A DNA stretch of 64,000 nt from an uncultured Acidobacteriota bacterium (GCA_963796275.1 CAWCKY010000006.1:1536001-1600000); one strand, 5' to 3'; shown: positions 46,443 to 64,000, counted from the first letter of the stretch. The notes: generated by a model from the letters alone, not told the origin. Made by a program: numbers and translations.

Positions 46443-46907
46443 TTGGATCGCAGAGTTAATACGGCAATCCAATTTCTGTCCGATGCCATAACTGATGCTG
46501 TTATTGGTAATTTACCAGCCGGATCAGGTCACGATGAATGTGAGATAAAAGATAGATTGTCGCTGGATAAGCTGGCACGATCTGTGAATCTATCCCGGTC
46601 GCGGTTGCGAGCCCTGTTCAAATCTGGAACTGGAATGACTCCGGCGCAATACATAAAGCGCCTCAAAATAGAGAAAGCGAAGGAACTGGCGGAAAAAAGC
46701 AATATGACCATGGGGCAGATTTTAGCGAGTTTAGGAGTCCGTGACGAAAGCCACTTTCGGCGTGACTTCAAGAAAGCCATAGGTATTACTCTCAAAGAGT
46801 GCAGAGACCTCCATTACCAGCAGCCCAAAGAACCGCTTAGTCAAAGATTCCAGTTTTTATCAAGTGTACAGTCAAATCGGCCCGCAAATAGTCAAAACGG
46901 CCAGTGA
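46443..46907 (+). CDS. Stand-alone AraC-family HTH transcriptional regulator
   Basis: AAGGAGG RBS before TTG; LARSVNLSRSRLRALFKSGTGMTP...ESHFRRDFKKAIG double HTH with no sensor domain. Confidence 0.88.
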   Translation: MDRRVNTAIQFLSDAITDAVIGNLPAGSGHDECEIKDRLSLDKLARSVNLSRSRLRALFKSGTGMTPAQYIKRLKIEKAKELAEKSNMTMGQILASLGVRDESHFRRDFKKAIGITLKECRDLHYQQPKEPLSQRFQFLSSVQSNRPANSQNGQ

Positions 46908-46952
46908 ATAGTCATTTAGGCTCTGTTTATTACTATGAGATATCGATAACTT
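46870..46952 (+). promoter_or_regulatory. Three 20-bp direct repeats (AGTCAxxxxGGC) followed by a -10-like TAACTT: putative AraC-activated promoter, copy 1
   Basis: AGTCA at 46870, 46890 and 46910; the block recurs almost identically at 57522. Confidence 0.7.
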
Positions 46953-47036
46953 AAGCTGACTAATCCGAGTGGTTGATATTTAGTCGTTGGCCGGATTTGT
47001 TGTATCCATCTGTCTTCCAAAGGGAGGGTTCATATA

Positions 47037-49553
47037 GTGAAAAGAAATCTTCTGTTTTTATGCATGTTTGCCATGTGGTGTTTCGCCGTCTTGGGTTCGG
47101 GGAAAATTTTCACTAACAGCAGCGCGCAACAAGCCGACATTGAACTTTCGCTGGCTCCTTTGTCGATTCCCGACAATACGATCGGAATCCGTGTGCGAGG
47201 GGCGAGTAAGAACGGCAAGCGTCTGGTCTTCGAATCGGAGAACAATTTTAACGGCGGCAATCCCGATCGAAACCCCGAGATTTTTGTTTTTGATGTCGAT
47301 TCACAAAGTATAATTCAGATAACCAACTCCCAGAATGGGACAACCCCAATAGTTTTTGTCAAAAACCTTACGCCATCGATCAGCGGTGATGGAACCAAGA
47401 TCGTCTTCTCTTCCAATGCGCCTTTGGGCGATATGCTTGACACTGATCACAATTATGAAATGTATTTGGCCAATCTGCCGCCCGGCGCGACGACGGCGAC
47501 GATTAGTCGCCTGACCAAGACCGATCCGGACTTTTTTTGTGGCAACGTGGGTCCAAGCGTCAATGATGACGGCAGTATGATCGTTTTCGTATCGAGATGT
47601 AAGTCCTTCAATGAGACCAATGTTGCAGGGTCATTCACTCCCGATAATCCTGAGGGTAACCCTGAGATTATGGCGCTTCGGCTGGATCCTGGGCAAACGC
47701 GATATCGATATATTCAGGTGACGGGTACGCAAAATTATAATCAGTGCGGGGCTACGTGTTCCAGCCATACTCCGAGAGTCAGCGGCAATGGGATGGTGGT
47801 GGCGTTTCTCTCTTACGGGGATTTTGAGGGCAGAAACGGCGATGCGAACGGGGATTTTGAAAATGAAGAGATTTTCCTGAGCAGGTATGATCTTGGGAGT
47901 AGTAGATTCGCTAACATCATACAGGTCACCGATACCATTGAAAACAACGGTGTGGGGGGAATCGTTCCGATCTTCGATGTAATGACGGGAAAATTCCGAG
48001 TAGATAATAATAGGGCGAGGGGAAACCTGTTTCAGTGGATTATGAATCCGCTGAGCAATGATGGGAGGTGGCTCGTGATGGAGTCGGCGGGAAACTATGA
48101 TGGGATCAATCACAACAAGGCGCGGAACGTCTGGCTTTTCGATACAGTCAACCGCTCTTTTATTAGGCTTACCAATCAGATGGCCTCTCCTGTGCCGACC
48201 CAGGATGAACTGCGGCAACTCGACTATTTCTTCTTTCCCAGCATCAATGCGGCGGGAACATTCATCACTTTCAGCTCGTCGCTCAATCTCACATCGCAGA
48301 ACCCCGATGGCAGCAAAGAGGTTTTCAGGTACGAGATTAACCATGGGAGTCTCCGGCAGCTTACGTTCACCCAGCCTTCGTCCTTCTACGACGATGAGCG
48401 TGACAACTACACATCATCATTTCTCTCTGCCAATGGCGATATCGTGTCATTCAATTATCTGACGCAATCGCTGCAGCCCAACGCAGAGAACGTGATTGGC
48501 CTTTTCCAGATGATCATCCGCCCGGTCACGAGGAGCTCTCCGGGGGCCCGTATCGTTAATGGCGCGAGCTTCGATCCGGCACAGGTCGCGCGGGGCTCGC
48601 TGAGCACAGTCCAGGGCAATGAGCTGGCCAATTCGACTCCATCGGTCCCTGCCAGTCCGCCGTTTATCGTGGATGGCGTATCGGTCTCAGTGGGAGGGAT
48701 CGCGGCGCGGATTACCTATGTCTCGCCGGGACGTGTCAATTTCGTCGTCCCGAATGAAATTGCGACTGGTGATGCGGTTGCTTTCTCAGTCAACAACAAC
48801 GGAGTGCAGTCGGCCGGGACGATCAAGATCGTCGATGCCGCGCCTGGCATCTATAGCGTCGACGGGAGCGGGACAGGAATGCCGACTGCCACCTGTTTAA
48901 GCAAATTCCAGGGCTTTCATGACATTTATTACGACCCTCCGTGCGTAGCGAGTGGGGCCAATCTGGACAGTATTCTATTCTTCTTTGGGACAGGGTGGCG
49001 CAATGCGCTGGGAACCCAGGTCAAGCTCAACGGTATGACACTGACGCCGGTCTACAGCGGGGCTGCAGGCGGGGGAGATCGGAGAGATCAGATCAACCTG
49101 GTAGTGCCTTCCAACCTTGCCGGGTTGACCGATGCCGATATCTCGGTGGTGGCATCAGGGATCAATCTTGAGAGTAATAAATTGAAGGTCTCATTCCAGG
49201 AAATCTCGACGGCCCTTCTCCTCTTGGATAGCAGCAGATGTTTAACTAAGAGGCCCGGGATGCCTGATGAGTACTCATATCCACCGTGTACGGTGAGCAG
49301 CGACACAACAACCGGGATTCTGGTCCTTTATGGCACCGTGTTTAGCAATGCGCCAAGTCTGCAGGTCAAGTTTGAAGAAGTGACATTGAGTCCGGTATAC
49401 AGCGGACCGTCGGGGAATAATCCAGCGATAGATCAGATGAACATCCCGCTGCCACCGAGTCTTGCCGGCAGGACGGGCCATATCTCAGTGATAATTCCCG
49501 GCACCGGCGTCGAGAGCAATAAGGTGAGCATCTCATTCCAGCCGCTTCCGTGA
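47037..49553 (+). CDS. Secreted TolB/PD40-like beta-propeller protein with a C-terminal TIGR03437-type domain, copy 1
   Basis: Signal peptide; repeated PSISGDG..IVFSS / EIF blades; IVNGASF..VARGSL..YVSPGRVNFVVP..APGIY..GTG..DQIN C-terminal module. Confidence 0.8.
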   Translation: MKRNLLFLCMFAMWCFAVLGSGKIFTNSSAQQADIELSLAPLSIPDNTIGIRVRGASKNGKRLVFESENNFNGGNPDRNPEIFVFDVDSQSIIQITNSQNGTTPIVFVKNLTPSISGDGTKIVFSSNAPLGDMLDTDHNYEMYLANLPPGATTATISRLTKTDPDFFCGNVGPSVNDDGSMIVFVSRCKSFNETNVAGSFTPDNPEGNPEIMALRLDPGQTRYRYIQVTGTQNYNQCGATCSSHTPRVSGNGMVVAFLSYGDFEGRNGDANGDFENEEIFLSRYDLGSSRFANIIQVTDTIENNGVGGIVPIFDVMTGKFRVDNNRARGNLFQWIMNPLSNDGRWLVMESAGNYDGINHNKARNVWLFDTVNRSFIRLTNQMASPVPTQDELRQLDYFFFPSINAAGTFITFSSSLNLTSQNPDGSKEVFRYEINHGSLRQLTFTQPSSFYDDERDNYTSSFLSANGDIVSFNYLTQSLQPNAENVIGLFQMIIRPVTRSSPGARIVNGASFDPAQVARGSLSTVQGNELANSTPSVPASPPFIVDGVSVSVGGIAARITYVSPGRVNFVVPNEIATGDAVAFSVNNNGVQSAGTIKIVDAAPGIYSVDGSGTGMPTATCLSKFQGFHDIYYDPPCVASGANLDSILFFFGTGWRNALGTQVKLNGMTLTPVYSGAAGGGDRRDQINLVVPSNLAGLTDADISVVASGINLESNKLKVSFQEISTALLLLDSSRCLTKRPGMPDEYSYPPCTVSSDTTTGILVLYGTVFSNAPSLQVKFEEVTLSPVYSGPSGNNPAIDQMNIPLPPSLAGRTGHISVIIPGTGVESNKVSISFQPLP

Positions 49554-49555
49554 GA

Positions 49556-49745
49556 TGGCCATCTGAGATTTGAGATTTAATATTCGTCCTTAATACAAAT
49601 TTCAAATTTCAAAATTTCAAAATCTCTGTGGCCGAGCCTGATTACTGATCACAGCAATATCGTGGTTGGGATTGTTAATAGTCGATTTCGATTATAGATG
49701 ACCGTCCCAGTTTTGTCTCCAGTCGGTCATCAGGAGGTTGAATCT
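49556..49745 (+). promoter_or_regulatory. Conserved structured intergenic spacer (heptamer hairpin plus stem-loops abutting the Rhs RBS), copy 1
   Basis: Near-identical to 60216-60389; GATGACCG...CGGTCATC stem ends immediately before AGGAGG. Confidence 0.5.
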
Positions 49746-52700
49746 ATGTCTCGCCTGCTTGCGAAGTCCTCTCTCTTCTTGGCTCATTCCATTCACTCAG
49801 CTCTTTCCGCGTGTGGAACTCTGCGTGCCGCATTCCGGCAGACAGGAGGCTGTCTGTCGTCACTCTTGCGCGCGCTCATGTTACGACGCGAGCCCGAGAG
49901 ACGGCGATTCGCCCCTTCCGCCATCCATCGTTTCGTCTGCGCCGCGATGGTGATAGTGATGCCTGCCCAGATGGTACTAGCTTCGCCTCAGATTACTCAC
50001 GCCCTGGCGGAGGGCGTCCGGGTGAGATCGATCAATTCGTGGCAGAGGGCGGAGCACTGGTGGGGCGCGAGCGGGTGGGGGGCGAGCTCGGCGCTCTTCG
50101 TGCGAGAGAACCTTCCCTTCCTGGGCTCCGCCAAGCCGCAGAGGAAGGGAGGGGATGGGAGAGGGGCGCCGGCGGGAGAGCGGATGCCGCAGCCGAGACC
50201 GCAGGAGACGCAGGCAGAGCGCCAAGCGCGTGTGGCGCGTGTGGAGGTGATACCTGCAGAGGCCGCCGTCAGACCCGATCAGGAGGTGGAGTTCATCGTC
50301 ATCGGATATGATAGCGATGGTGCGCCGGTCAGCAGCTTGCCGTTTGAGCTGAGCGGAGAGGATGAGAAGACCGGCGAGAGTGTGGCGGTGGGGGGGAAGG
50401 GGAAGTTTGCCGCCTCCCGAGAGGGAGATTACCGGGTGAAGGTCAATGCGTTGGGCCATCGGGCCGAAGCCAGGGTGAAGGTGAATACTGCCCCGGGGGC
50501 GCTGAGTGACAGACCGGTGGTTCCCTATACCTTTTCATCGCGCGACCTGCCACAGGCACCGCGATCCAGTTCGTCGGTTACGCCCGGGAACCGGCGCCCC
50601 GGCAAGCAGAAGGGAAATATCGTAGGAGGATTGGCTTCGAGGTACGCGGCGAGCGGGACGAAGCTGATGGCGGCGATCGCGCAGAGCCAGGGAGACCTCT
50701 ATGGGTGGAACGACGGCAACGCGACGACGGCGGATGATCCCGGATCGGGGCGAGGCATGCCGACCGGAGAGCCGCCCGATGGTGGAGCGGGCAGCGCCAA
50801 TTTCCAGTTCACCGCGCCGGTGCTGGCAGTGGAGGGGCGAGGTCTTGACCTGGATCTGGGGATGTACTACAACGCGCGCGTCTGGCATAAGGCGGGCCCC
50901 GTGATCACCTACAACATCGATAACGAACAAGTGCCCGGCTGGCGGTTCGGCTTGAGTAAGATAGTGGGAATGGGCGAGCAGAGCGGATTTATGATCATGG
51001 AAGCCAACGGGACGCGGCGGTCATACACGTGTACGATCACGCCGCAGCAGCCGATCGGATTCGCAGACTGCAAGACCACCGACGGTTCATTCATCGACTA
51101 CCACGTGGAGGCGTCTTACCCTGGAGGAAAGCCGATCTCGGCGCGGATGGCGCTGTCCAACGGGACGGTGATCACGATGGACACGGCCAACCCATATGGG
51201 TCTGGTCCGAATGCGGTCTACCCGCAGAATATTCAGGATAGTCACGGGAATCGGATAAATATCGCGTATGCGCCCCACTCATTCCCCTATGGAGGGGAGC
51301 CGAAGATTCGCTACATCATCGACACGATGGGGAAGGTGATCGAGTTCTATTATAACGCCGATCACCTGCCGGTAGCGGTGACGGCGCCCGGGTTGGACGG
51401 GACGAGGCGGACGATGGTGCGGATCACCTACGATTGGATAAATAAAAGCAGCCTGGGAACATTCACAAACATGGTTCCGCTGATCCGTAATACTTCATAT
51501 CCACGTGTGAAGGCGATCTATTATCCGGAAAGCAAGACGGGGTGGTGGTTCGGGGATTCCTATTCGGTCTATGGGATGCTGGCGAAGGTAGTCAATCAGC
51601 GGGGAATGAGCTTTAGTGGGGCGTCGCTGCCGGCCGATTCGTTACAACCGGCAGATATGGGAACGATCACGCCTGGAGTGATGACGCACCAGTTGGTCTA
51701 TGACTATCCGATGGTATCGAGCGGATTGAGGGATGAGCCGAGATATCAGACAATGACCGAGACGTGGGCGTATATGGATGAGGCGCCGGCGGTGACGCGA
51801 TATCTGGTGCAGGAGGATGCGACGCCGCGGCGAACGGAGATGACGCGGCCTGACGGGGTGAAGATGGTGATGCTGTCGCATAACGCGCCGGGAGATTTCA
51901 AGGATGGTCGTGTATATCAGAACGAGACCTTCAGCCCGCAGGGAGCGCTGCTGAGCCGGTCATACATCGAATGGGAGGAGGGGAACTGTCCGCAGCCGGG
52001 GCAGGCGCCTGGACCATACGAGTATTGTGCGCCGCGAGTGAGCCGGATAGAGACGACTGATGAACTGGGCCAGACGACGGGCAAAGAATACAGCTATGGG
52101 TCGCACTTCAACCAGGTGGGGGAGACGCGCCTCTATGGGTATGGGTATAAATTTGATGGGACGAAGACGTTGCTGCGGAAGACGAAGACTGAGTATATGA
52201 ATGATGGGAAGTATATCGATTATCGGCAACGAGCGTATGGGAGCCACATCTACAATCTGGTGAAGGCGAGCGAGGTATATGGGGCAGATGGGACGACGCG
52301 GTTGGCGCGCACTGAGTATTCCTATGATGAAAACACAGGGACAGGGGGATTGAAAGATGCGCCTGAGATAACGACAGATGGGTATAACAGTTACTTCAAC
52401 CCGCATAGTACCCCGGGAAACATCGATACGTGGAATCGGGGAGATGTCACGAGTGTCAAACGATACGCGAAGGCGGCGACGCTGGAGGGTGCGATCACCG
52501 GGACGATGGATTACGACACCACGGGGAACGTGGTGAAGGTGGTGCCGCAATGCTGCGGTCAGACGATGATCGAATACACGTTAAACACGCAATACTCGTG
52601 GCCGGAATCGGTGACCAGCGGATCGGTGACTGAGACGACGAAACAGAATAAGACATTCGCGACCTATGATTTCGGCACTGGGCTGTTGAAGAATGAGACC

Positions 52701-55700
52701 GATGCGAATGGACGGATATCGCAATATGAATACATCCCCGGAACGACACGCCCATTAAAAGAGATAGGGCCGACCGGGGCCTACACCTATCACGAGTACG
52801 ATGATGCGGGGCTGAAGGTGATGGACTTCGTCTACAGGGCTGGGGAGAGCGAGGGGGATTTCTCTTCGCGCAGCGATAAATACCTGAATGGGCAGGGCCA
52901 GGTGCGCTTGGCGATCGGGTATGGGAAGGATGACGTGCAGGATCAGGTGGCGAGCCGATATGACCAGATGGGAAGAATGAAGCAGCAGAGCCGGCCGTAC
53001 CGCGATGGGGAGACGCCGCAATGGAGCACGGTGACCTATGATGACCTGGATCGGCCGATGAAGACGACCTCGCCTGACTTGAGCGAAATGACGAGAGCGT
53101 ACAACGAGGAGGTGGAGCCTGAAGGGGCATTGGGGCAGGCGGGGCAGACGGTGCGAGTGAGGGACGCGTGGGGGCGAGAGCACTGGGCGCGCAGAGACGC
53201 GCTGAGGAGGCTGGTGGAGGTCATCGAACCGAATCCGGATGGGGACGGAAGTGTGGGGACAGGCGGGCTGATCACGACCTACAGTTACGATGAGCTGGAT
53301 CGGTTGATTGAGGTGAGGCAGGGAAACCAGAGGCGGAGATTCAGGTATAACTCGTTTGGACAGGTAACGCATCAGAAATTGGCGGAACAGGCTGGGACGC
53401 TCAATGACCAGGGGGAGTATGTTGAGATGGGGGGGCAGTGGAGCAGTGTCTTCAAATACGACCCACGGACGACCCTGATGACAGAGAGCGTGGATGCGCG
53501 TGGGGTGAAGACGGTCTTTGAATACAACGACGATCCGCTCTACCGGGTGCAGACGCTGAGATATGACAAGAGCGGAGTGCCTGCGAGTCTGGCGGGGACG
53601 ATACTGGATGCGGCGAGTGTGGATTACTTCTATATGACGACAGGAGACGTGACGCGGCTGCGGAGTATGGAAGTGGCTTCAGGGATGGGCAACGAGACGA
53701 TGAGCTACGACAGCGAGGGAAGGCCGAGCGAGGTGGTGCGGACCTTTGCGGGACGTGGGGACTATCCGCTGGTGATGAACTATGAGTGGGATGAGCTGGG
53801 TCGGCTGAAAGCGATGACCTATCCGAATCAGTACGGAGCTGGAGATATCCGCAAGAAGGTGGAATACACCTATGACAGCGCGAGCCGGGTCGAGAGTATG
53901 AAGTTCGGGGGAGTGTCCTTCGCCGCCAACCCGGTCTACAACGCAGCGGACCAGACGACGTCGTTGAAGGTTGGTAGCCAGACCGTCGAGAACTATGGCT
54001 ATGACCTGCAGACGGGACTTCTGACGACACAGCAAGTCGTGCGCGGCGGGACGGATAAATTGGTAGATCTGAAGTACAACTACACGCTGACCAATGATGC
54101 GAACAACAGCGGAGCGAAGACGGGGCAACTGACGGGGATCACGGATCTGAAGAACCCGGCGCGCAACCGGATACATAAATACGACAATCTAGGAAGATTG
54201 AAGATGGTCCAGGGAGGAGCCAATGCGTTCACGAGCCCGGACTGGAGTCAGAGCTACAGATATGATCGGTTTGGGAACAAGTTGGGAGTGACGAAGAATG
54301 GTAACTCGCCGCAGATACCGCTGGATGGGATGGGGAGTGTGAGCGTCAACCCACTAAACAACCGGATCACGAGCGCGGGGTTTGCGTATAACGATACGGG
54401 AGATCAGACGAGTGCGGTGATCGACGAAAGCGGGACGCAGCAGCAGAGTCAGTATGATGCGGCAGGGAGGCTGGTGAAGGTGCTGGACGGGAGCGGGACG
54501 ACGGTGCTGGCGAGCTATAGCTACGGAGCGGGCAACCAGCGGCTGATGAGCGTCGAGGGCGGAGTGACGAGGTATTTCGCGTGGGGAGGAGAAGGGATAT
54601 TGAGCGAGTACGAGGCAGTGGGAGCGAGCGGGTTGAAGTGGAAGACGAGTTACGTCTATCTGAGCGGGCAGCTCATGGCGACGACGAGTGGGAGCGATGG
54701 GAGTGAGACGCGATTCCATCACCCGAATCGATTGGGTGGCACGAGGCTGGTGACCGATGCGGCGAATGGGGAGATAGTGGCGGAGCAGTTGAGCTTGCCA
54801 TACGGGACGATGCAGCCGTATGGGGCGTATGGCGGAGACAACTCGTATCAGCACCCGACCAAGAGCAATCCGTCGAGGAAGCGGTTCACGAGCTATGATC
54901 TGGACGATGCGACTGGAATGCATTATGCGGTGAATCGGTATTACAGCAGCCGGCAGGGGCGATTCACGCAGGTCGATCCGATAGTGATGGGATCGGTGGA
55001 GTTGGCGAATCCGCAGAGTTTGAACCTGTATGCGTATGTGGAGGGCGATCCGGTAAACAGTAGAGATCCGTTGGGGCTTGATGGTCTGTCCTTTTCTTTC
55101 GGAGGACCCTATCCGACAGGTGGAGGAGGTGGTGGCTGGTGGAATAGCTTGTTATCGTTTGGGCCGTTTACCTTCAGTTTCGGGTTTGGCAGTGGATTTG
55201 GGGGCCCATTCATTCCATGGTTCCCACTTCCCATGAACAGGATGCTGTTGCTGCAGCAACAACTCGGGATACAGCCAACATACGTGGCGAAGCCACAGGA
55301 GCCCAAACCACTACTGCCGCTGCTACAGGAGCCACCTACGGCTCAACCTTTTGTGAGCAAGAGCCCCTCGATCTCTGAAAGCGATTTCTATTACAACGAG
55401 GAGTATGGTGCGACTTTAAGAATTGGACAAGCATCAGAATCCAAAGCAAGCGCTGATGGTTTTTTTGCCAATGTTAGGAAGTGGCTTCCTGGAAGTTTTG
55501 GCTTGAGTATTGATGCCGCAGCTAATGCTGGTATGGGCATGGGATATAATGCTGTTGGTTCGGCAGGGATTGGCACATTTTCTGGGCGCCCATTTTTCGG
55601 ATTGCCAAATGGAGCATTTGCTAGCGGTGGCGTTTCTGGATATGGAACTAATCACCCATTCAGTTATCCACAGGAAGTGCCGGACAAGATTGGGGGACTT

Positions 55701-55976
55701 CAAGTTCCCAATATATCGGTTTTTGGTTATGCTGGGGTCGGTATTGGTGGGTGGCTCAGCAATGCTCGAACCCCATATGACCTGACAAAAACAGTTAACA
55801 CAATCTCTATAAATTTCGGAATACCATGGGTCGCAGACTTGCAGGGCGGATTTTCGCTGTCTTATGGTAATGGAATATATCAACTTACTATTGACCCTCC
55901 AACCGGTATTCCTTTCACGGGGATCGGAGGTGGTATGGGCATTATCAAGCAAACGACTGCCACTAAGGGATGGTGA
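49746..55976 (+). CDS. Rhs/YD-repeat polymorphic toxin (~2076 aa) with a signal peptide, Ig-like and DUF6531-like N-terminal domains and a Gly-rich C-terminal domain
   Basis: AGGAGG RBS before ATG 49746; many YD repeats; Rhs core RYYSSRQGRFTQVDP...NLYAYVEGDPVNSRDPLG; composition shifts after DPLG (~55076). Confidence 0.92.
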   Translation: MSRLLAKSSLFLAHSIHSALSACGTLRAAFRQTGGCLSSLLRALMLRREPERRRFAPSAIHRFVCAAMVIVMPAQMVLASPQITHALAEGVRVRSINSWQRAEHWWGASGWGASSALFVRENLPFLGSAKPQRKGGDGRGAPAGERMPQPRPQETQAERQARVARVEVIPAEAAVRPDQEVEFIVIGYDSDGAPVSSLPFELSGEDEKTGESVAVGGKGKFAASREGDYRVKVNALGHRAEARVKVNTAPGALSDRPVVPYTFSSRDLPQAPRSSSSVTPGNRRPGKQKGNIVGGLASRYAASGTKLMAAIAQSQGDLYGWNDGNATTADDPGSGRGMPTGEPPDGGAGSANFQFTAPVLAVEGRGLDLDLGMYYNARVWHKAGPVITYNIDNEQVPGWRFGLSKIVGMGEQSGFMIMEANGTRRSYTCTITPQQPIGFADCKTTDGSFIDYHVEASYPGGKPISARMALSNGTVITMDTANPYGSGPNAVYPQNIQDSHGNRINIAYAPHSFPYGGEPKIRYIIDTMGKVIEFYYNADHLPVAVTAPGLDGTRRTMVRITYDWINKSSLGTFTNMVPLIRNTSYPRVKAIYYPESKTGWWFGDSYSVYGMLAKVVNQRGMSFSGASLPADSLQPADMGTITPGVMTHQLVYDYPMVSSGLRDEPRYQTMTETWAYMDEAPAVTRYLVQEDATPRRTEMTRPDGVKMVMLSHNAPGDFKDGRVYQNETFSPQGALLSRSYIEWEEGNCPQPGQAPGPYEYCAPRVSRIETTDELGQTTGKEYSYGSHFNQVGETRLYGYGYKFDGTKTLLRKTKTEYMNDGKYIDYRQRAYGSHIYNLVKASEVYGADGTTRLARTEYSYDENTGTGGLKDAPEITTDGYNSYFNPHSTPGNIDTWNRGDVTSVKRYAKAATLEGAITGTMDYDTTGNVVKVVPQCCGQTMIEYTLNTQYSWPESVTSGSVTETTKQNKTFATYDFGTGLLKNETDANGRISQYEYIPGTTRPLKEIGPTGAYTYHEYDDAGLKVMDFVYRAGESEGDFSSRSDKYLNGQGQVRLAIGYGKDDVQDQVASRYDQMGRMKQQSRPYRDGETPQWSTVTYDDLDRPMKTTSPDLSEMTRAYNEEVEPEGALGQAGQTVRVRDAWGREHWARRDALRRLVEVIEPNPDGDGSVGTGGLITTYSYDELDRLIEVRQGNQRRRFRYNSFGQVTHQKLAEQAGTLNDQGEYVEMGGQWSSVFKYDPRTTLMTESVDARGVKTVFEYNDDPLYRVQTLRYDKSGVPASLAGTILDAASVDYFYMTTGDVTRLRSMEVASGMGNETMSYDSEGRPSEVVRTFAGRGDYPLVMNYEWDELGRLKAMTYPNQYGAGDIRKKVEYTYDSASRVESMKFGGVSFAANPVYNAADQTTSLKVGSQTVENYGYDLQTGLLTTQQVVRGGTDKLVDLKYNYTLTNDANNSGAKTGQLTGITDLKNPARNRIHKYDNLGRLKMVQGGANAFTSPDWSQSYRYDRFGNKLGVTKNGNSPQIPLDGMGSVSVNPLNNRITSAGFAYNDTGDQTSAVIDESGTQQQSQYDAAGRLVKVLDGSGTTVLASYSYGAGNQRLMSVEGGVTRYFAWGGEGILSEYEAVGASGLKWKTSYVYLSGQLMATTSGSDGSETRFHHPNRLGGTRLVTDAANGEIVAEQLSLPYGTMQPYGAYGGDNSYQHPTKSNPSRKRFTSYDLDDATGMHYAVNRYYSSRQGRFTQVDPIVMGSVELANPQSLNLYAYVEGDPVNSRDPLGLDGLSFSFGGPYPTGGGGGGWWNSLLSFGPFTFSFGFGSGFGGPFIPWFPLPMNRMLLLQQQLGIQPTYVAKPQEPKPLLPLLQEPPTAQPFVSKSPSISESDFYYNEEYGATLRIGQASESKASADGFFANVRKWLPGSFGLSIDAAANAGMGMGYNAVGSAGIGTFSGRPFFGLPNGAFASGGVSGYGTNHPFSYPQEVPDKIGGLQVPNISVFGYAGVGIGGWLSNARTPYDLTKTVNTISINFGIPWVADLQGGFSLSYGNGIYQLTIDPPTGIPFTGIGGGMGIIKQTTATKGW

Positions 55977-56279: not shown

Positions 56280-56672
56280 ATGGATTGTATATTTCAAATT
56301 GTTACTTTTGTCATTCAGCTTATGGGCTTTGCCCTATTCATTTTCGTATTTATTTGGCTCTTTGCTCGCCCACTTCTCTATAGTTATCAAATATCCCACA
56401 GTGGTATAGACATTATGTTTATGTACGTATATAAAATGTATTATATTAATTTCGATGACATCGTAAATATCCGAGTTGAGAACTATCTATCCGCATTAAG
56501 GAATTTCAATAGCATTAGCAATATCCGCAAAACGAAAAACCTGTTAGATACATTTTACCCGAAGCGAGTGATGGTAATCACCACAAGCGGAAAGATACAG
56601 AATTGGATATTATCCACGACTCCTCTTGAGTACATTAGCAATAATGTAAAGATAAGTATTGAGTACAAATGA
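56280..56672 (+). CDS. AT-rich small membrane protein, candidate immunity protein
   Basis: N-terminal TM helix, markedly AT-rich, downstream of the Rhs toxin, overlaps the next gene (ATGA). Confidence 0.6.
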   Translation: MDCIFQIVTFVIQLMGFALFIFVFIWLFARPLLYSYQISHSGIDIMFMYVYKMYYINFDDIVNIRVENYLSALRNFNSISNIRKTKNLLDTFYPKRVMVITTSGKIQNWILSTTPLEYISNNVKISIEYK

Positions 56673-57133
56673 TCATCAGAGTTGAGGCTAAAATCAATAA
56701 GTTAATACATAGACATAAAAACCGAGTCAATATTTCACCTATAATGTTGCTCGTTTTAGCGGTTGTATCCTGCTCTTCTTTGCAAAGCCCTGAGTTAGCC
56801 AACATTGCGATTCAGGATTTCCATAAAAAATATAATAACGAACAGTACAAAGAAATTTACAATCAATCGGATGAAAGCTTCAAACAAACTGTGCCAGAGG
56901 GAGAAGCCATAGTATTTTTTACCAAGCTTGGTGAAAAGCTGGGAAAAGTTGGAAACACCAAGCCGATTAAGCAGGGTATAAGCGTAACATCAATGGGAAC
57001 TATGGTAACCATAAGTAATGATACGGAGTTCTCAAGAGGAAAGGCGCAAGAAAGATTTGTATTTATCATTAAAGATAGTGTTATTAAGCTGATGGATTAT
57101 AAAGTAGATTCGCCCTTATTGCTCTCGCGATAA
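56669..57133 (+). CDS. DUF4019/DUF3887-like lipoprotein, candidate immunity protein
   Basis: Lipobox LAVVSC; IQDFHKKYNNEQYKEIY...KLG...TEFSRGKAQERFVF pattern; AT-rich. Confidence 0.65.
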   Translation: MIIRVEAKINKLIHRHKNRVNISPIMLLVLAVVSCSSLQSPELANIAIQDFHKKYNNEQYKEIYNQSDESFKQTVPEGEAIVFFTKLGEKLGKVGNTKPIKQGISVTSMGTMVTISNDTEFSRGKAQERFVFIIKDSVIKLMDYKVDSPLLLSR

Positions 57134-57276
57134 TGCGGAACCAATCGATTCCAAATCCCATTCTCACCGCCAATTCGTTCGGAGATCCGCGACAAGCCAT
57201 GTTCCCAATACATATTTTCAGCTCATGCGCTTAACCTGACGGTAAGGTCTTCGTTTTTTCTTCAGCCACCAGACCA

Positions 57277-57463
57277 CAATTTGAAGAGATGATGCTGAAT
57301 CCGAGGCTACAGCGGGGCGTTTGGGAACCACCCTATGATAGATCAGATGAACATCCCCCTGCCTGGGATATTTGCCGGTAGGACGTGTCAGGCCTCAGTG
57401 AGAATTCCCGGCACCAGTGTTCGAGAGCGACAGGATGCCGATCTCATTGCTGCCGCTTCCGTG
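57277..57463 (+). pseudogene. Decayed 3' end of a third propeller/TIGR03437 gene
   Basis: GATAGATCAGATGAACATCCC...ATTCCCGGCACC...GCCGCTTCCGTGAGA matches the ends of 47037..49553 and 57691..60213, with indels. Confidence 0.8.
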
Positions 57464-57521
57464 AGACAGCCACAGAGGCGCATCCGAAAATCTTAAATTT
57501 CCGGATTTTATCAAAGCGGGC

Positions 57522-57604
57522 AGTCAAATCGGCCCGCGAATAGTCAAAACGGCCAGTGAATAGTCATTTAGGCTCTGTTTATCATTTTGAGATATCAATA
57601 CCCT
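57522..57604 (+). promoter_or_regulatory. Three 20-bp direct repeats plus a -10-like TACCCT: putative AraC-activated promoter, copy 2
   Basis: AGTCA at 57522, 57542 and 57562; one mismatch to copy 1 over the 60-bp repeat block; same spacing to the -10. Confidence 0.7.
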
Positions 57605-57690
57605 GAAGCTGTCTGATCAGATCGATTGAAATCTGGTTGTTGGCCGGGTTTATTGGATTCATCTTTCTTCCAAAAGGAGGGTTTCATAAC

Positions 57691-60213
57691 GTGAAAAGTT
57701 ATATTCTGTTTTTATGCGGGTTTGTCATGTGCTGTTTCACCGTCTTGGGTTCGGAAAATATTCTCACTACCACCAGCGCGCAACAAGCCGACATTGAACT
57801 TTCGCTGGCTCTGTTGCCGATTCCCGGCAATACGGTCGGAATTCGTGTGCGCGGGGCGAGTAGGAACGGCAAGCGTCTGGTCTTCGAATCGGAGAACAAT
57901 TTTAACGGCGGCAATCCCGACCGAAACCCCGAGATTTTTGTCTTTGATATCGATTCCCAAAGTATCATTCAGATAACTAACTCCCAGAATAGGGCGCACC
58001 CCTTCGTCTATGTCAAAAACCTTACGCCATCGATCAGCGGTGATGGATCCAAGATCGTCTTCTCTTCCAATGCGCCTTTGGGCGATATGCCGAACACTAA
58101 TTACAATAGTGAAATCTACCTGGCCAATCTGCCGCCCGGCGCGACGACGGCGACGATCCGTCGCCTGACCAAGACCACCGAACCGAACTGTAGCATCGGG
58201 AATCCAAGCGTCAATGATGACGGCAGTATGATCGTTTTCGGATCGGGTTGTAAGGTCTTCAATGAGACCAATGTTGCAGGGTCATTTACTGCCGATATTC
58301 CTGCGTATAGTGCCGAAATTATGGCGCTTCGGCTGGATCCTGGGCAAACGCGATATCGATACATTCAGGTGACGGGTTCGCAAAATTATAACGACTGCGA
58401 GGGTACCTGTTCCAGCCATACTCCGAGAGTCAGTGGCAATGGGATGGTGGTGGCGTTTCTCTCTTACGGGAATTTTGAGGGCAGAAACGTCGATGCGAAC
58501 GGGGATTTTCAGAGTGGTAATGAAGAGATTTTCCTAAGCAGGTATGATCTTGGGAGTAGTAGATTCACCAACATCATACAGGTCACCGATACCCTTGAAA
58601 ACAACGGTGTGGGGGGAATCGTTCCGATCTTCGATGTAATGACGGGAAAATTCCGAGTAGATAATAATAGGGCGAGGGCAAACCTGTTTCCGCCGTATAT
58701 AAATCCGCTGAGCAATGATGGGAGGTGGCTCGTGATGGAGTCGGCGGGAAACTATGATGGGATCAATCACAACAAGGCGCGGAACGTCTGGCTTTTCGAT
58801 ACAGTCAACCGCTCTTTTATTAGGCTTACCAATCAGATGGCCTCTCCTATGCCGACCCAGGATGAGCTGGGGCGGCTGGACCATACTTTCACACCCAGCA
58901 TCGATGCGGCGGGAACATTCATAACTTTCTGCTCGTCGCTCAATCTCACATCGCAGAACCCCGATGGCAGCAAAGAGGTTTTCAGGTACGAGATTAACAA
59001 CGGGACTCTCCGGCAGCTCACTTTCACCCAGCCTTCGTCTTTCTTCGACGATCAGCGTTACAACTTCACATCATCGTTTCTAACTGAAAATGGCGATATG
59101 GTGTCATTCAATTATCTCACGCAATCGCTGCAGCCCAACGCCCAGAACGTTATGGGCCTTTTCCAGATGATTATCCGCCCGATAACCAGCCCCAACAATG
59201 TGGGGACGGCTATCGGCAATGCGGCAAGCTTCAACACGAACCAGATCGCGCGCGGGTCACTCGCTATCTCCCTTGGCACTCAGATCGCGGGGGCCGTGTC
59301 CCCGGCCTCGCTGCCATTCGTGCTCAATGGGGTATCAGTCAGGGTAGGCCAGGTGGCGGCGCGGATCGCCTCGATAGTAGATGGAAGAGTCACATTCTTG
59401 ATGCCAAATGAAATTGCGACTGGAGTGATCGATTACTCGATCAACGATAACGGAGTGCAACATACGGGTAATGTAGTAATCGTGGATGCAGCGCCTGGAA
59501 TCTATACCATCGACGGGGGCGGGACAGGAGATTCGACCGCCTATTGTTACAGCATATACCGGAACGGGACAGATGGTTACTCGGATCTTCCGTGCGCGGC
59601 GAGTAACAACGACGCGACCAATTTTCTGGTCATCGTGGGGACGGGCTGGCGTAATTCTCCTGGGGGTACCCAGGTCAAGATCAACGGGACAACATTGAAT
59701 TCGAGCTATAGCGGCGCGACCGGGCTTCTCACTCAGGATCAGATCAACGTCATTCTCCCGTCGTATCTCGCCGGATTGCAGAATGCCGAACTCTCGGTGG
59801 TGATTCCCGGCAGCGGGCTTGAGAGCAACAGGGTGCCGATCTCATTCCAGGGTACGCCGACATCCCCAACCATTTTGGAGGGCAATGATGGTGTCGATTG
59901 TGTGAGCTCAAGGCTTGGGCAGCCCGACACCTACTCGGAGCCGCCGTGTGTGGTGAGCAATGGCTCAACAATGAGGCTCCTGGTCCTCTATGGATTTGGG
60001 TGGCGCAATGCGCCGAATCTGCAGGTCAAGTTTGAGGAATTGATACTGAATCCGAGCTACAGCGGCCCGTTGGGGAATAATCCAGCGATAGATCAGATGA
60101 ACATCATACTACCATCGAGTCTTGCCGGCAGGACGGGCCATATCTCAGTGATAATTCCCGGCACCGGCGTCGAGAGCAATAAGGTGAGCATCTCATTCCA
60201 GCCGCTTCCGTGA
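57691..60213 (+). CDS. Secreted beta-propeller/TIGR03437 protein, copy 2
   Basis: AAGGAGG RBS before GTG 57691; colinear paralog of 47037..49553. Confidence 0.8.
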   Translation: MKSYILFLCGFVMCCFTVLGSENILTTTSAQQADIELSLALLPIPGNTVGIRVRGASRNGKRLVFESENNFNGGNPDRNPEIFVFDIDSQSIIQITNSQNRAHPFVYVKNLTPSISGDGSKIVFSSNAPLGDMPNTNYNSEIYLANLPPGATTATIRRLTKTTEPNCSIGNPSVNDDGSMIVFGSGCKVFNETNVAGSFTADIPAYSAEIMALRLDPGQTRYRYIQVTGSQNYNDCEGTCSSHTPRVSGNGMVVAFLSYGNFEGRNVDANGDFQSGNEEIFLSRYDLGSSRFTNIIQVTDTLENNGVGGIVPIFDVMTGKFRVDNNRARANLFPPYINPLSNDGRWLVMESAGNYDGINHNKARNVWLFDTVNRSFIRLTNQMASPMPTQDELGRLDHTFTPSIDAAGTFITFCSSLNLTSQNPDGSKEVFRYEINNGTLRQLTFTQPSSFFDDQRYNFTSSFLTENGDMVSFNYLTQSLQPNAQNVMGLFQMIIRPITSPNNVGTAIGNAASFNTNQIARGSLAISLGTQIAGAVSPASLPFVLNGVSVRVGQVAARIASIVDGRVTFLMPNEIATGVIDYSINDNGVQHTGNVVIVDAAPGIYTIDGGGTGDSTAYCYSIYRNGTDGYSDLPCAASNNDATNFLVIVGTGWRNSPGGTQVKINGTTLNSSYSGATGLLTQDQINVILPSYLAGLQNAELSVVIPGSGLESNRVPISFQGTPTSPTILEGNDGVDCVSSRLGQPDTYSEPPCVVSNGSTMRLLVLYGFGWRNAPNLQVKFEELILNPSYSGPLGNNPAIDQMNIILPSSLAGRTGHISVIIPGTGVESNKVSISFQPLP

Positions 60214-60215
60214 GA

Positions 60216-60389
60216 CGGCCATCTGAGATTTGAGATTTAATATTCGTCCTTAATTCAAATTTCAAATCTCTGTGGCCGAGCCTGATTACTGATCACAGCA
60301 ATATCGTGGTTGGGATTGTTAATAGTCGATTTCGATTATAGATGACCGTCCCAGTTTTGTCTCCAGTCGGTCATCAGGAGGTTGAACCT
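60216..60389 (+). promoter_or_regulatory. Conserved structured intergenic spacer, copy 2
   Basis: Near-identical to 49556-49745 except for heptamer copy number. Confidence 0.5.
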
Positions 60390-63300
60390 ATGTCTCGCCT
60401 GCTCGAGAAATCCTCTCTCTTCTTGGCCCATTTCATTCACAGAGCTCTTTCCGCGTGTGGAACTCTGCGCGCCGCATTCCGGCAGACACGATGCTGCCTG
60501 TCGTCACTTTTGCGAGCGCTCCTGTTTCGCCGCGAGGCCGAGAGAGGGCGTTTCGCCGTGTCGACCATCCATCGGTTCGTCTGTGCGGTGATGGTGATGG
60601 TGATGCCTGCCCAGATGGTCGTAGCTTCACCTCAGATTTCCCACTCCGTGGCGGAGACGGTCTCGCTAAGAACGATCAATGGGTGGCAGCAGGTGGATCA
60701 CTGGTGGGCCTCGAGCGGATGGGAGGAGAGGACAGAGCGCTTCGTGCGTGAGAACCTTCCCTTCCTGCGCACCGCCACGCCGCAAAGGAAGGGCTGGGAT
60801 GGGAGAGGGGCGCCGGCGGGAGAGCGGATGCCGGAGCCGAGACCGCAGGAGAGTCAGGCAGAGCGCCATGCGCGAGTGGTGCGTGTGGAGGTGATCCCGG
60901 ATGAAGTCACGGTCAGACCCGATCAGCCGGTAGAGTTCATCGTCATCGGATATGACAGCAATAATGCGCCGGTCAGCAGCCTGTCGTTTGAGCTGAGCGG
61001 GGAAGATGAGAAGACCGGGGAGCAGGTGAATGTAGCAGGGAAAGGGAAGTTTGCAGCCTCAAGAGAGGGAGAATACCGGGTGAAGGTCAATGCGTTGGGT
61101 CATCAGGCCGAAGCCCGGGTGAGTGTGAAGGCCGCCCCCCAAGCGCTGAGTGACAGACCGGTGGTTCCCTATACCTACTCATCGCGCGAGGTGGCGCCGG
61201 CGCCGCGATCGACTTCGTCTGTACAGCCGAAGAGCGGGCGCACCGGCAGGCAGAGAGGAAAGATCGCCGGTGGGTGGGCTAGCAGGTACGCGGCGAGCGG
61301 GACGAAGCTGATGGCAGCGATCGCGCAGAGCGGAGATCAGTATGGCTGGAACGACGGCAACGCGGGGACGGCGGACAATCCCGGGTCTCGGCGTGGGACG
61401 CCGGCCGGAGAGCCGCCCGATGGGGGAGCGGGCAACTCCAATTACCAATTCACGGCGCCGGTTCTGGCGGTGGAGGGGCGAGGTCTGGATCTGGATCTGG
61501 GGATGTACTACAACTCGCGGGTATGGCATAAGGCGGGCTTCGTCGTCACCCACGACATCGATCGCGATTGGCCGGCGCCCGGCTGGGAATTCGGGTTCAG
61601 CAAGATCGTGGGGATGGGAGAGCAGAGCGGCTATATGATCATGGAAGCCAACGGGACGAGGCGGCCATACACCTGCACGATCACGCCGCAGCAGCCGATC
61701 GGGTTCGCCGACTGCAAGACGACGGACGGATCATTCATCGATTACCACGTGGAGGCGAATTTTCCGGGAGGAAAACCGATCTCGGCGCGGATGGTGCTTT
61801 CCAACGGGACGGTGATCACGATGGACTCGGCCAATCCATATGGGTCTGGTCCCAATGCGGTCTACCCGCAGAATATTCAGGATAGTCACGGGAATCGGAT
61901 AAATATCGCGTATGTGCCGCACTCATTCCCATATGGCGGGGAGCCGAAGCTACGCTACGTCATCGACACGATGGGGAAGGTGATCCAGTTCTATTACGAT
62001 GCCAATAACCTGCCGGTGGCGGTGACAGCGCCGGGATTGGACGGGACGAGGAGAACGGTGGTGCGGATCACCTACGAATGGAAGAACAAAAGCAGCCTGG
62101 GAAGTTTCGCCAACCTGGTACCGCTGGTCCGAGGTAATACATTTCCGGTGGTGAAGGGGATCTATTATCCGGAGAGCCAGACGGGGTGGTGGTTCGGCGA
62201 CACGGATTCATATTCAGCGTATGGGATGATCGCGAAGGTAGTCAATCAGCGAGGGATGGGCTTCAGCGGGGCGGCGCTGCCGGCCGATTCGTTACAACCG
62301 GCAGATATGGGAACGATCACGCCTGGAGTGATGACGCACCAGTTGGTCTATGACTATCCGATGGTATCGAGCGGATTGAGGGATGAGCCGAGATACCAGA
62401 CGATGACCGAGACGTGGGCGCATATGGATGAGGCGCCGGCGGTGACGCGATATCTGGTGCAGGAGGATGCGACGCCGCGGCGAACGGAGATGACGCGGCC
62501 TGACGGGGTGAAGATGGTGATGCTGTCGCATAACGCGCCGGGAGATTTCAAGGATGGTCGTGTATATCAGAACGAGACGTACAGCCCGCAGGGAGCGCTG
62601 CTGAGCCGATCATACATCGAATGGGAGGAGGGGAACTGTTCGCAGCCGGGGCAGGCGCCGGGGCAATACGAGTACTGTGCGCCGCGCGTGAGCCGGATAG
62701 AGACGACTGATGAACTGGGCCGGAAGACGGGCAAAGAGTTCAGCTACGGGTCGCTCTTCAATCAGGTGGAGGAGGCGCGTCTATATGGCTACGGGTATAA
62801 ATTTGATGGGGCGAAGACGTTGCTGCGGAAGACGAAGACTGAGTATATGAATGATGGGAAGTATATCGATTATCAGCAGCGAGCGTATGGGAGCCATATC
62901 TACAATCTGGTGGCGGCGAGCGAGGTATATGCGGGGGACGGCACGACGCGGCTGTCGCGCGTCGAGTATTCCTATGATGAAAACACCGGGACAGAGGGAT
63001 TGAAAAACGCGCCCGGGATAACGACAGACGGATATAACGATTTCTTCAATCCGCATACTAACCCGACGAGCGAGAGTACGTGGAGTCGAGGAGACGTGAC
63101 GGCAGTCAAGCGATACGCAAAGGCGGCGACGCTGGAAGCCGGGAGCGCGATCAGCGAGACGATGAATTACGACGTGACGGGGAATGTGGTGAAGGTGGTG
63201 CCGCAATGCTGCGGGCAGACGACGATCAATTACACGGCGAACACGCAATACGCGTGGCCGGAATCGGTGACCAGCGGATCGGCGAGTGAGGAGACGAAAC

Positions 63301-64000
63301 AGAATACGAGTTCATCGACCTACGATTTCAACACGGGACTGGTGAAGACGGTGACCGACGCGAATGGGCGAACATCGCAGTACCAATACATTCCCGGAAC
63401 GACGCGGCCATTAAAGGAGATTGGGCCGACGGGGGCCTACACCTATCACGAGTACGATGATGCGGGGCTGAAGGTGATGGACTTCGCCTACAGGGCTGGG
63501 GAGAGCGAGGGGGATTTCTCTTCGCGCAGTGATAAATACCTGAATGGGCAGGGCGGAGTGCGGCTGGCGATCGCGTATGGGAAGGATGACGTGCAGGATC
63601 AGGTGGCGATCAAATATGACCAGATGAGGAGAGTGAAGCAGCAGAGCCGGCCGTACCGCAGTGGGGAGACGCCGCAATGGAGCACTGTAACCTATGATTA
63701 TCTGGATCGGCCGATGAAGACGACCTCGCCTGACTTGAGCGAAATGACGAGAGCGTACAACCAGGGGGAGGAGCCTGAGGGAGCATCAGGGGAAGCCGGG
63801 CAGACGGTGCGAGTGACGGATGCATGGGGGAGGGAGCGATGGGCGCTGAGTGATGCGCTGGGGAGGCTGGTGAAGGTGATCGAGCCGAAAGCGGATGGGG
63901 ACGGAAAGGTAAACACGGATGGGATGGTGACGACCTACAAGTACGATGACCTGGATCGCTTGATAGAGGTGAGGCAGGGAGAGCAGATACGGAGATTCAG
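60390..64000 (+). CDS. Second Rhs/YD-repeat protein, running off the window end
   Basis: AGGAGG RBS before ATG 60390 (MSRLLEKSSLFLAH...); colinear with 49746..~53345; absent from the ORF track, consistent with no stop before the window end. Confidence 0.9.
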   Translation, partial: MSRLLEKSSLFLAHFIHRALSACGTLRAAFRQTRCCLSSLLRALLFRREAERGRFAVSTIHRFVCAVMVMVMPAQMVVASPQISHSVAETVSLRTINGWQQVDHWWASSGWEERTERFVRENLPFLRTATPQRKGWDGRGAPAGERMPEPRPQESQAERHARVVRVEVIPDEVTVRPDQPVEFIVIGYDSNNAPVSSLSFELSGEDEKTGEQVNVAGKGKFAASREGEYRVKVNALGHQAEARVSVKAAPQALSDRPVVPYTYSSREVAPAPRSTSSVQPKSGRTGRQRGKIAGGWASRYAASGTKLMAAIAQSGDQYGWNDGNAGTADNPGSRRGTPAGEPPDGGAGNSNYQFTAPVLAVEGRGLDLDLGMYYNSRVWHKAGFVVTHDIDRDWPAPGWEFGFSKIVGMGEQSGYMIMEANGTRRPYTCTITPQQPIGFADCKTTDGSFIDYHVEANFPGGKPISARMVLSNGTVITMDSANPYGSGPNAVYPQNIQDSHGNRINIAYVPHSFPYGGEPKLRYVIDTMGKVIQFYYDANNLPVAVTAPGLDGTRRTVVRITYEWKNKSSLGSFANLVPLVRGNTFPVVKGIYYPESQTGWWFGDTDSYSAYGMIAKVVNQRGMGFSGAALPADSLQPADMGTITPGVMTHQLVYDYPMVSSGLRDEPRYQTMTETWAHMDEAPAVTRYLVQEDATPRRTEMTRPDGVKMVMLSHNAPGDFKDGRVYQNETYSPQGALLSRSYIEWEEGNCSQPGQAPGQYEYCAPRVSRIETTDELGRKTGKEFSYGSLFNQVEEARLYGYGYKFDGAKTLLRKTKTEYMNDGKYIDYQQRAYGSHIYNLVAASEVYAGDGTTRLSRVEYSYDENTGTEGLKNAPGITTDGYNDFFNPHTNPTSESTWSRGDVTAVKRYAKAATLEAGSAISETMNYDVTGNVVKVVPQCCGQTTINYTANTQYAWPESVTSGSASEETKQNTSSSTYDFNTGLVKTVTDANGRTSQYQYIPGTTRPLKEIGPTGAYTYHEYDDAGLKVMDFAYRAGESEGDFSSRSDKYLNGQGGVRLAIAYGKDDVQDQVAIKYDQMRRVKQQSRPYRSGETPQWSTVTYDYLDRPMKTTSPDLSEMTRAYNQGEEPEGASGEAGQTVRVTDAWGRERWALSDALGRLVKVIEPKADGDGKVNTDGMVTTYKYDDLDRLIEVRQGEQIRRF

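Follow-up and report, generated by a model that had tools for sequence, protein, structure and literature searches.

The window analysed here is a stretch of 64,000 nucleotides (nt; C6:1536001-1600000) from the 9.46-Mb, seven-contig assembly (genome G000) of an uncultured Acidobacteriota bacterium belonging to a Blastocatellales family. It carries an Rhs toxin locus in which a gene for a small AraC regulator is followed by two tandem units, each containing an operator block, a gene for a secreted PD40-propeller/TIGR03437 protein, a signal-peptide Rhs gene and a low-GC (guanine plus cytosine) toxin tip with small open reading frames (ORFs). The first-pass annotation of this DNA had taken the propeller protein for a dedicated partner of its Rhs, and the pairing of these two genes is the main subject of what follows. 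The features of the locus are listed below.

46443..46907, + strand: AraC regulator gene, 154 amino acids (aa), helix-turn-helix (HTH) only
46867..46923, + strand: operator 1, three tandem 20-nt units
47037..49553, + strand: propeller 1, 838 aa, PD40 and TIGR03437
49554..49745, + strand: propeller-Rhs spacer or leader, with 49620-49742 identical in both units
49698..55976, + strand: Rhs1, ORF of 2092 aa, likely start ATG 49746
55347..55973, + strand: CT1, Gly-rich toxin tip of 209 aa
56280..56672, + strand: candidate immunity gene 1a, 130 aa, proposed from position only
56669..57133, + strand: candidate immunity gene 1b, 154 aa, proposed from position only
57308..57472, + strand: propeller 3'-end relic, with some 40 nt of AraC-like sequence behind it, identified by repeat comparison
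57519..57575, + strand: operator 2, the same three 20-nt units
57691..60213, + strand: propeller 2, 840 aa from GTG (whole ORF 57637-60213)
60342..64000 and on to window-equivalent 66464, + strand: Rhs2, 2040 aa, with a different tip, CT2

Comparison of the window with itself and with the whole genome confirmed the repeat period of about 10.65 kb reported by the first-pass annotation. Direct-repeat blocks of 236-300 nt reappear at a spacing of 10641-10660 nt with 83-96% identity, and BLASTN of unit 1 against the whole genome aligned 8529 nt to the next unit at 85.6%; the unit is thus present twice in tandem at 83-96% nucleotide identity. A third Rhs, located on contig C4 and more distant (about 69%), came up in the same search. 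An upstream block of 87 nt (46862-46948) has its counterpart at 57514-57600 with 91% identity, and the reported order, in which a propeller gene, the same operator block and the same spacer precede the Rhs gene, was found in both units. Reading on past position 64000, where further units had been thought worth seeking, gave none: Rhs2 ends at window-equivalent 66464 and is followed by two small ORFs, genes for L-lactate permease and glucose-6-phosphate dehydrogenase and other housekeeping genes. Because housekeeping genes come after unit 2, there are exactly two units. The AraC gene stands before unit 1 only; the description of the locus as an AraC gene plus tandem cassettes holds for the polymorphic Rhs locus, the AraC gene and the conserved operator. 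As had also been proposed, complete cassettes were duplicated and not orphan pairs of C-terminal tip and immunity gene, the two full units ending in different toxin tips.

One soil DNA sequencing run contained 29% of the sequence words of the locus, and contigs from this run cover the locus sparsely; one contig of 556 nt spans the end of propeller 1, the spacer and the start of Rhs1, while the junction between the units is uncovered. No RNA dataset was found among the sequencing runs matched to the locus, and scans of the locus for promoters and terminators gave counts not above those of shuffled sequence.

Rhs proteins encapsulate a C-terminal toxin, which is set free after the DPxG motif. 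Both Rhs proteins of the locus matched the repeat family PF05593 (1.1e-17 for Rhs1 and 2.3e-25 for Rhs2), TIGR01643 matched too, and both proteins contain the Rhs core (TIGR03696, 1e-15, at residues 1708-1794 of Rhs1) with the motif DPLGLDG at residue 1790 in Rhs1 and 1793 in Rhs2. The likely ATG start of Rhs1 has AGGAGG 8 nt ahead of it, and the protein is ordered as a signal-like segment, an FWW/GWDGKGAP N-domain, the RHS shell, the core, a Gly/Phe-rich linker and CT1. Alignment of Rhs N-termini revealed three features common to all 27 sequences: a segment made up of a basic stretch and some 17 hydrophobic residues with LA(A/S)PQ at its end, a conserved FWW..SGWA / KGWDGKGAP module, and an immunoglobulin (Ig)-like domain. 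The ratio of nonsynonymous to synonymous substitution rates (dN/dS) between Rhs1 and Rhs2 was 0.39.

Downstream of DPLGLDG both proteins have a Gly/Phe-rich hydrophobic stretch and a Pro-rich linker, and past residue 1884 they diverge fully. The predicted toxin tips CT1 (209 aa) and CT2 (154 aa) are unrelated, at 17-22% identity, and the segment formed by CT1 and the small ORFs has a GC content of 37-46% against 54-67% in the Rhs body. Neither tip matched a Pfam toxin family or any family in NCBIfam; in the ESM Atlas the best scores, 0.87 for CT2 and 0.91 for CT1, were to unnamed clusters with low recognition and gave nothing reliable. Candidate immunity protein 1a has an N-terminal hydrophobic helix, a GC content of about 38% and no family match, and 1b has a lipoprotein-like leader and a weak match to DUF3887; searches of the small downstream ORFs in Pfam and NCBIfam returned no toxin or immunity family. 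The small ORFs behind each Rhs are presumed, from their position, to be immunity genes. These data support the earlier description of a polymorphic Rhs toxin locus, here with two different predicted toxin tips. A degraded remnant of an Rhs core end (NYAVNRY...SNLY) lies after the presumed immunity gene of unit 2 (L001:6867-7289, window-equivalent 66866-67288) and is the trace of an earlier, displaced toxin tip.

Of the 154 residues of the AraC protein, 36-121 matched PF12833 (1.2e-19) and PF00165 (3.2e-17), and the protein has no further domain; its start codon is TTG, preceded by AAGGAGG. It has the double HTH domain with no N-terminal sensor domain and so falls in the single-domain, MarA-like class of AraC/XylS regulators. 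It is neither MarA nor SoxS itself, since its scores against these NCBIfam equivalogs fall far short of the cut-offs. Operator 1 consists of three sites of the form AATAGTC-N5-GGCCA at -41, -21 and -1 from the AraC stop, with 3, 0 and 2 mismatches respectively; it overlaps the stop codon and lies about 115 nt ahead of the propeller start. Binding of AraC to these tandem 20-bp sites is predicted. The minus strand at 45216-46253, divergent from the AraC gene, encodes a 238-aa protein with an FHA domain and has an ORF of 106 aa, and three paralogues of the FHA protein cluster on contig C4.

Operator 2 differs from operator 1 by one substitution in a core of about 60 nt, the flanking non-coding DNA having diverged. 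It is preceded by a 165-nt relic of a propeller 3' end (57308-57472), which is 76-77% identical to both intact 3' ends and continues into about 40 nt (to 57513) in which a resemblance to the AraC 3' end is still visible. The relic would fit a former propeller-AraC-operator order in this lineage, like that seen today in the relatives G020 and G060. A search upstream of AraC 1 and after unit 2 found no such relic.

For comparison we used 86 other genomes of the same Blastocatellales family (87 with this genome), all of the relatives being draft or metagenome-assembled genomes of this single family, and every absence reported for them means not found with the query used; one, G004, is unpublished, and statements on it depend on unpublished data. 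The regulator protein was searched for in the 87 family genomes, and the collection of species-representative genomes was searched with one exact operator pattern. Homologues of the small AraC with 33-53% identity were present in 22 of the 86 other genomes, and in G020, G081 and G078 the gene adjoins Rhs. A set of 27 small-AraC loci, comprising 20 fetched from the family-wide search and the earlier ones, was scored for sites with at most 3 of 12 mismatches to AATAGTC-N5-GGCCA on the coding strand, from -80 to +130 nt relative to the AraC stop; three further small-frame matches and nine matches in frames of at least 270 aa were omitted from it. At least one site was found at 18 of the 27 loci, and two or three sites spaced 19-22 nt apart at 14, against about 0.08 sites per shuffled segment and site pairs in at most 0.5% of such segments. 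An Rhs gene lies downstream on the same strand in 13 of the 18 loci with enough sequence and is missing from the other five; the remaining nine were too short. Counting this genome, 23 family genomes have a regulator of this kind, and it accompanies Rhs genes in at least 10 of them. The exact operator pattern was found, across the species-representative genomes, only in G020 and G081, and allowing up to three mismatches across the 87 family genomes added nothing. Across the small-AraC loci, the recurring element is a DNA-binding-only AraC with tandem sites at its stop, usually followed by an Rhs gene.

The AraC genes of G020 (L107:~14490-14500) and G078 (L113/L055:~1895-1905) have a run of 8-9 C in the N-terminal coding part (PPPG), and the G078 frame breaks at this run, which may reflect slipped-strand phase variation or an assembly error. 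The window AraC has no such run.

TIGR03437 is an uncharacterised C-terminal domain of many large acidobacterial proteins. Propeller 1 matched PD40 at 3.2e-11 and TIGR03437 at 2.1e-33. Bit scores for TIGR03437 were 115.9 and 87.6 against a curated cut-off of 29.05; in this genome the profile has 15 matches in at least 10 frames. An AlphaFold model of propeller 1 from an 18-row alignment (mean predicted local distance difference test score, pLDDT, of 78.6) has a helix as leader, an all-beta propeller that runs to about residue 480, and beta-sandwich domains behind the propeller; the leader looks cleavable rather than anchor-like. Foldseek returned generic propellers (S9 peptidase N-domains, TolB, oligogalacturonate lyase) and multidomain propeller-plus-Ig proteins, with template modelling (TM) scores normalised to the query of at most 0.29. 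No catalytic domain was evident.

The homologous start of propeller 2 is a GTG at 57691 with a GGAGG ribosome site, and propellers 1 and 2 share 74% amino-acid identity, with a dN/dS of 0.48 at a dS of 0.36. The divergence is concentrated in the TIGR03437 region: residues 481-780 are 46-57% identical between the units, with dS of 0.6-1.6 and dN/dS of 0.2-0.65, giving no sign of positive selection. At the nucleotide level 48480-49380 and 59140-60040 are 55-72% identical, no higher than to the copy of the gene on contig C3, with flanks of 85-100% identity. Recombination is thereby indicated as the source of a mosaic, in which one of the two copies would be the recombinant. The spacer, by comparison, holds 123 nt (49620-49742; unit 2, 60248-60386) that are 100% identical in both units next to coding sequence with a dS of 0.1-0.4. 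The identical stretch carries one AATAGTC motif 18 nt ahead of the first ATG and may be an internal control element or the product of recent gene conversion. No terminator-like site was found on the plus strand of the spacer (49554-49745), and the propeller is probably co-transcribed with Rhs. A metagenome scan with propeller 1 gave 54 pattern matches, none of which was confirmed, and no closer relative of the cassette.

Rhs proteins with the N-terminal architecture of the window Rhs were found in 39 of the 86 other family genomes. When 24 of these loci were fetched with 1.5-8 kb of upstream DNA and searched by tblastn (E<=1e-5), a propeller homologue lay upstream of Rhs in none (0/24), and the nearest upstream genes were unrelated housekeeping or regulatory genes. 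Locus L104 has tandem Rhs genes with no propeller between them. Similarly, the third Rhs of this genome (C4, L002:8815-14943), 52% identical over the N-terminal 700 aa, has genes for IS21-type transposases and a dienelactone hydrolase upstream, and neither AraC, operator nor propeller. This C4 paralogue has an in-frame TAG in the stretch homologous to the N-terminal extension of the window protein.

The reciprocal survey started from the propeller. The first 40 relatives comprised 24 family genomes, all of which had full-length homologues with 37-48% identity, and 16 genomes from other families of the class, none of which had one. When the query was the propeller domain alone, 75 of the 86 family genomes gave a match at E<=1e-40, usually once per genome. 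The neighbourhood of the orthologue is conserved and made up of core genes: GlmS, GlmU and a CofD-like gene lie on one side, and genes for isocitrate and malate dehydrogenases, GreA, Rpe, a BamD-like lipoprotein and ValRS on the other. Among 68 orthologue loci examined, the sequence downstream could be used in 57, namely G060, 15 of the first 20 and 41 of another 47 with 2 kb or more, and an AraC gene directly followed the propeller in three of these (G020, G060 and G004). Rhs was seen in two; in G020 and G060 AraC stands between propeller and Rhs, and the G004 contig stops after AraC. The copy at the ancestral site in this genome, C3:1208374-1210876 (L106:8375-10877), is split by a frameshift near L106:9480-9500. 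No homopolymer is present at the break, which could mark a real pseudogene or an assembly error. In a quick phylogenetic tree, drawn with a midpoint root for display only, the two window copies and the C3 copy formed one clade (100 in the Shimodaira-Hasegawa-like approximate likelihood ratio test, SH-aLRT), apart from 20 orthologues that follow the genera.

The two genes also part company at the level of whole genomes. The Rhs core domain was found in 70 of the 86 family genomes and in none of the nine genomes of genus g8 (80-97% complete), all nine of which have the propeller; because g8 keeps the propeller without an Rhs core, the conserved function of the propeller is independent of Rhs. 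Conversely, G078, G079, G080 and G081 hold the closest Rhs relatives and yet have no propeller match at E<=1e-40, so this Rhs type is independent of the propeller. The survey of relatives therefore went against the proposal of a dedicated partnership, the pairing being essentially absent from them, and it gives no support to an Acidobacteria-specific delivery route defined by the propeller. Judged from gene neighbourhoods, the propeller is not a general or required Rhs delivery partner. A complex prediction of propeller residues 35-838 with Rhs1 residues 97-290, made with separate alignments and without controls and with an uncertain partner fold, scored 0.41, 0.00 and 0.00, values that speak on neither side of the question of binding.

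The position between operator and Rhs, which the propeller occupies in this window, is filled differently elsewhere. At AraC-Rhs loci of a second type it held, in 9 of 9 cases, a small gene whose product has an N-terminal hydrophobic leader; these X proteins, which group as Xa (155-200 aa), Xb (~300 aa) and Xc (219-308 aa), three families in all, had no match in Pfam or NCBIfam. The X proteins of G020 and G081 were considered as split-off Rhs N-termini or propeller relatives and rejected as such, having no similarity to either or to each other. Two of the second-type Rhs proteins end in known toxin families, Colicin_D in G050 and Ntox10 in G060. In G078, which has an Rhs of the window type, Rhs follows straight after AraC and operator with no gene between.

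Downstream of Rhs and the small ORFs, four of the second-type loci encode a reprolysin-like metallopeptidase of family M12B, which is secreted, has a length of about 1200 aa and carries BACON or Ig domains (L126:7682-11224, L129:850-4563, L131:7742-11365 and L134:587-4162). At a locus of G013 (L130:440-12321), AraC and operator are followed in order by genes for a TPR/multihaem-like protein (773 aa), an RHS+TIG protein (554 aa) and a teneurin-like NHL/TIG/RHS protein (2405 aa). In G014 a separate NHL propeller gene follows an AraC gene.

Analysis of the secretion genes agreed with the first-pass annotation in that no PAAR, VgrG, Hcp or Eag gene adjoins the cassettes; there is none on the whole contig, and such genes occur on C1, C3 and C7. 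The profile PF03865 for TpsB had zero matches in this genome and equally zero in every control genome. The window Rhs proteins themselves gave no PAAR match and, having no PAAR or prePAAR domain and no adjacent VgrG or Eag gene, would not belong to the T6SS (type VI secretion system) Rhs effectors. Sec-type RHS toxins that lack signature neighbour genes are a described class, as outlined in Zhang et al. 2012 (PMC3482391, Table 1).

Taken together, we consider the locus, with a probability of about 0.6, to be an AraC-controlled Sec-type Rhs toxin-immunity cassette that was duplicated in tandem and carries a captured propeller paralogue, which is not a required delivery partner. The AraC protein would bind the three tandem 20-bp sites that begin at its own stop codon and from there control the downstream operon. 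Since the second unit lost its AraC copy but kept the sites, a single regulator would act in trans on both units. The N-terminal signal segment would export each Rhs, which is predicted to fold as a YD shell enclosing the C-terminal toxin, and the toxin would be cut free at the DPLGL core motif. Each unit would carry an unrelated low-GC tip and its own small downstream ORFs as presumed immunity. The propeller, for its part, would be a lineage-specific paralogue of a family-wide, single-copy secreted protein from a housekeeping neighbourhood; a copy of its gene probably came to lie between operator and Rhs by capture and was later duplicated as part of the cassette, the toxin tip being exchanged. 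The two pairings in the window would count as one evolutionary event, and a gene pair repeated in this way inside one genome is not evidence of partnership.

Several observations weigh against this account. Both propeller copies of the window are intact and under purifying selection, whereas a frameshift splits the one at the ancestral site; the captured pair is therefore best regarded as functional, and its function could now be tied to Rhs. An AraC-Rhs island lies at the ancestral propeller site in three genera (G020, G060 and G004), an adjacency that is far above chance and that can mean a functional tie or, alternatively, that the gap between convergent genes is a preferred site of insertion. 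G013 has an AraC-linked Rhs of 2405 aa with fused NHL propeller and TIG domains, and at L090 an 800-aa ORF about 1.5 kb upstream of Rhs, behind a gene on the opposite strand, contains a weak TIGR03437-like stretch (25% identity). The slot may hold genuine accessory genes, as the nine second-type loci indicate, and the Rhs signal segment was assessed by eye from the alignment and not with a dedicated predictor.

Much of this evidence would also be expected if the captured propeller had been co-opted, in this genome, as a true Rhs accessory (such as a surface tether, an export adaptor or a target-recognition subunit) and now took the place that belongs to small secreted X proteins in other AraC-Rhs cassettes. 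The mosaic TIGR03437 region, which varies between the units as the toxin tip does, and the identical 123 nt of spacer argue in the same direction as the intact frames, the secreted slot proteins, the frameshifted C3 copy, the islands in the three genera and the fused G013 protein. Set against them are the 24 orthologous Rhs loci with no propeller, the closest Rhs relatives in genomes with no propeller match, and the G078 cassette with nothing between operator and Rhs; the selection is equally explained if the window copies took over the ancestral function after the C3 copy decayed, and the dN/dS values of the mosaic region are not those of positive selection. We regard co-option, which amounts to the earlier partner proposal narrowed to a single lineage, as possible but unlikely. 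A broader version is rather doubtful: in it, the secreted protein of the slot varies between lineages and is an accessory without which Sec-type Rhs could not be exported, displayed or aimed across the diderm envelope. If true, this would be a modular route of Rhs delivery, so far undescribed and independent of the T6SS, that has a regulator dedicated to it. It is very improbable that the proteins of the slot, among them the propeller, belong not to the toxin machinery but act as signal-sensing partners of an AraC that can only bind DNA. The AraC has no ligand or dimerisation domain, and a gene for an exported or membrane-anchored protein comes right after the operator in the window and at all second-type loci; however, the slot proteins come from at least four unrelated families, G078 has none, and a propeller with a cleavable-looking leader would hardly reach a cytoplasmic regulator. 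Least probable of all is export of these Rhs proteins by a T6SS encoded elsewhere, which would make the local genes irrelevant to delivery. A complete-looking cluster with TssC, Hcp and VgrG is present on C3, but besides the missing PAAR, VgrG and Eag, the same genome has canonical T6SS-type loci for contrast (an Eag-like gene, PAAR and Rhs core on C1; a VgrG-like gene with PAAR-Rhs on C7), and the signal-like segment is conserved in all 27 aligned relatives.

The cassette reading favoured here does not explain, through the propeller at this locus, how signal-peptide Rhs toxins leave a diderm cell and reach their target, but the locus offers two handles, the small AraC with its defined tandem operator and the variable gene slot before the toxin, and either could explain when and how soil Acidobacteriota deploy Rhs toxins. 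A literature search on TIGR03437 gave no paper, and searches on AraC, Rhs, immunity and repeats (titles and abstract starts) and on Sec-dependent or T6SS-independent Rhs returned no description of this arrangement.

Among known systems, the PAAR-Rhs effectors of the T6SS come with Eag chaperones and VgrG. They have in common with the present locus the Rhs shell, the DPxGL core motif, a polymorphic tip with presumed immunity and an accessory gene directly upstream; here, however, PAAR, prePAAR, Eag and VgrG are replaced by a Sec-like leader, and the upstream gene encodes an 838-aa secreted propeller and not a small cytoplasmic chaperone. Teneurin-like bacterial YD proteins and the TcB/TcC components of Tc toxins combine a beta-propeller with a YD shell, and a beta-propeller and Ig-like domains beside a YD/Rhs shell are likewise found here, in fused form in G013. 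In the window the propeller is a separate gene, is of the PD40 and not the NHL type, and is not conserved with Rhs. With TolB the propeller has the PD40-type fold in common, and TolB chains are among its structural matches; identity with TolB was ruled out by a TIGR02800 score of 25.7 against a cut-off of 343, the lack of a TolB N-domain and the two TIGR03437 beta-sandwiches that follow the propeller. MarA, SoxS and Rob are single-domain AraC/XylS proteins whose double HTH stands alone and recognises asymmetric sites of about 20 bp, whereas the regulator described here has two or three tandem direct repeats at its own stop, and its targets would be Rhs cassettes.

The closest class is that of the Sec-dependent ('T2SS/Sec', T2SS being the type II secretion system) RHS polymorphic toxins, which, as presented in PMC3482391, are alike in RHS repeats and core and, as predicted for this locus, in signal peptide and variable C-terminal toxin with a downstream immunity gene, and likewise have no signature secretion genes nearby; the paper lists Acidobacteria among the carriers of several toxin families. 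Relative to the class as presented there, the locus differs in the small AraC and tandem 20-bp operator upstream, in the whole gene wedged between operator and Rhs, and in the duplication of complete cassettes, not orphan tips, with tips that match no Pfam toxin family. It is best regarded as a variant within the known Sec-type Rhs polymorphic toxins.

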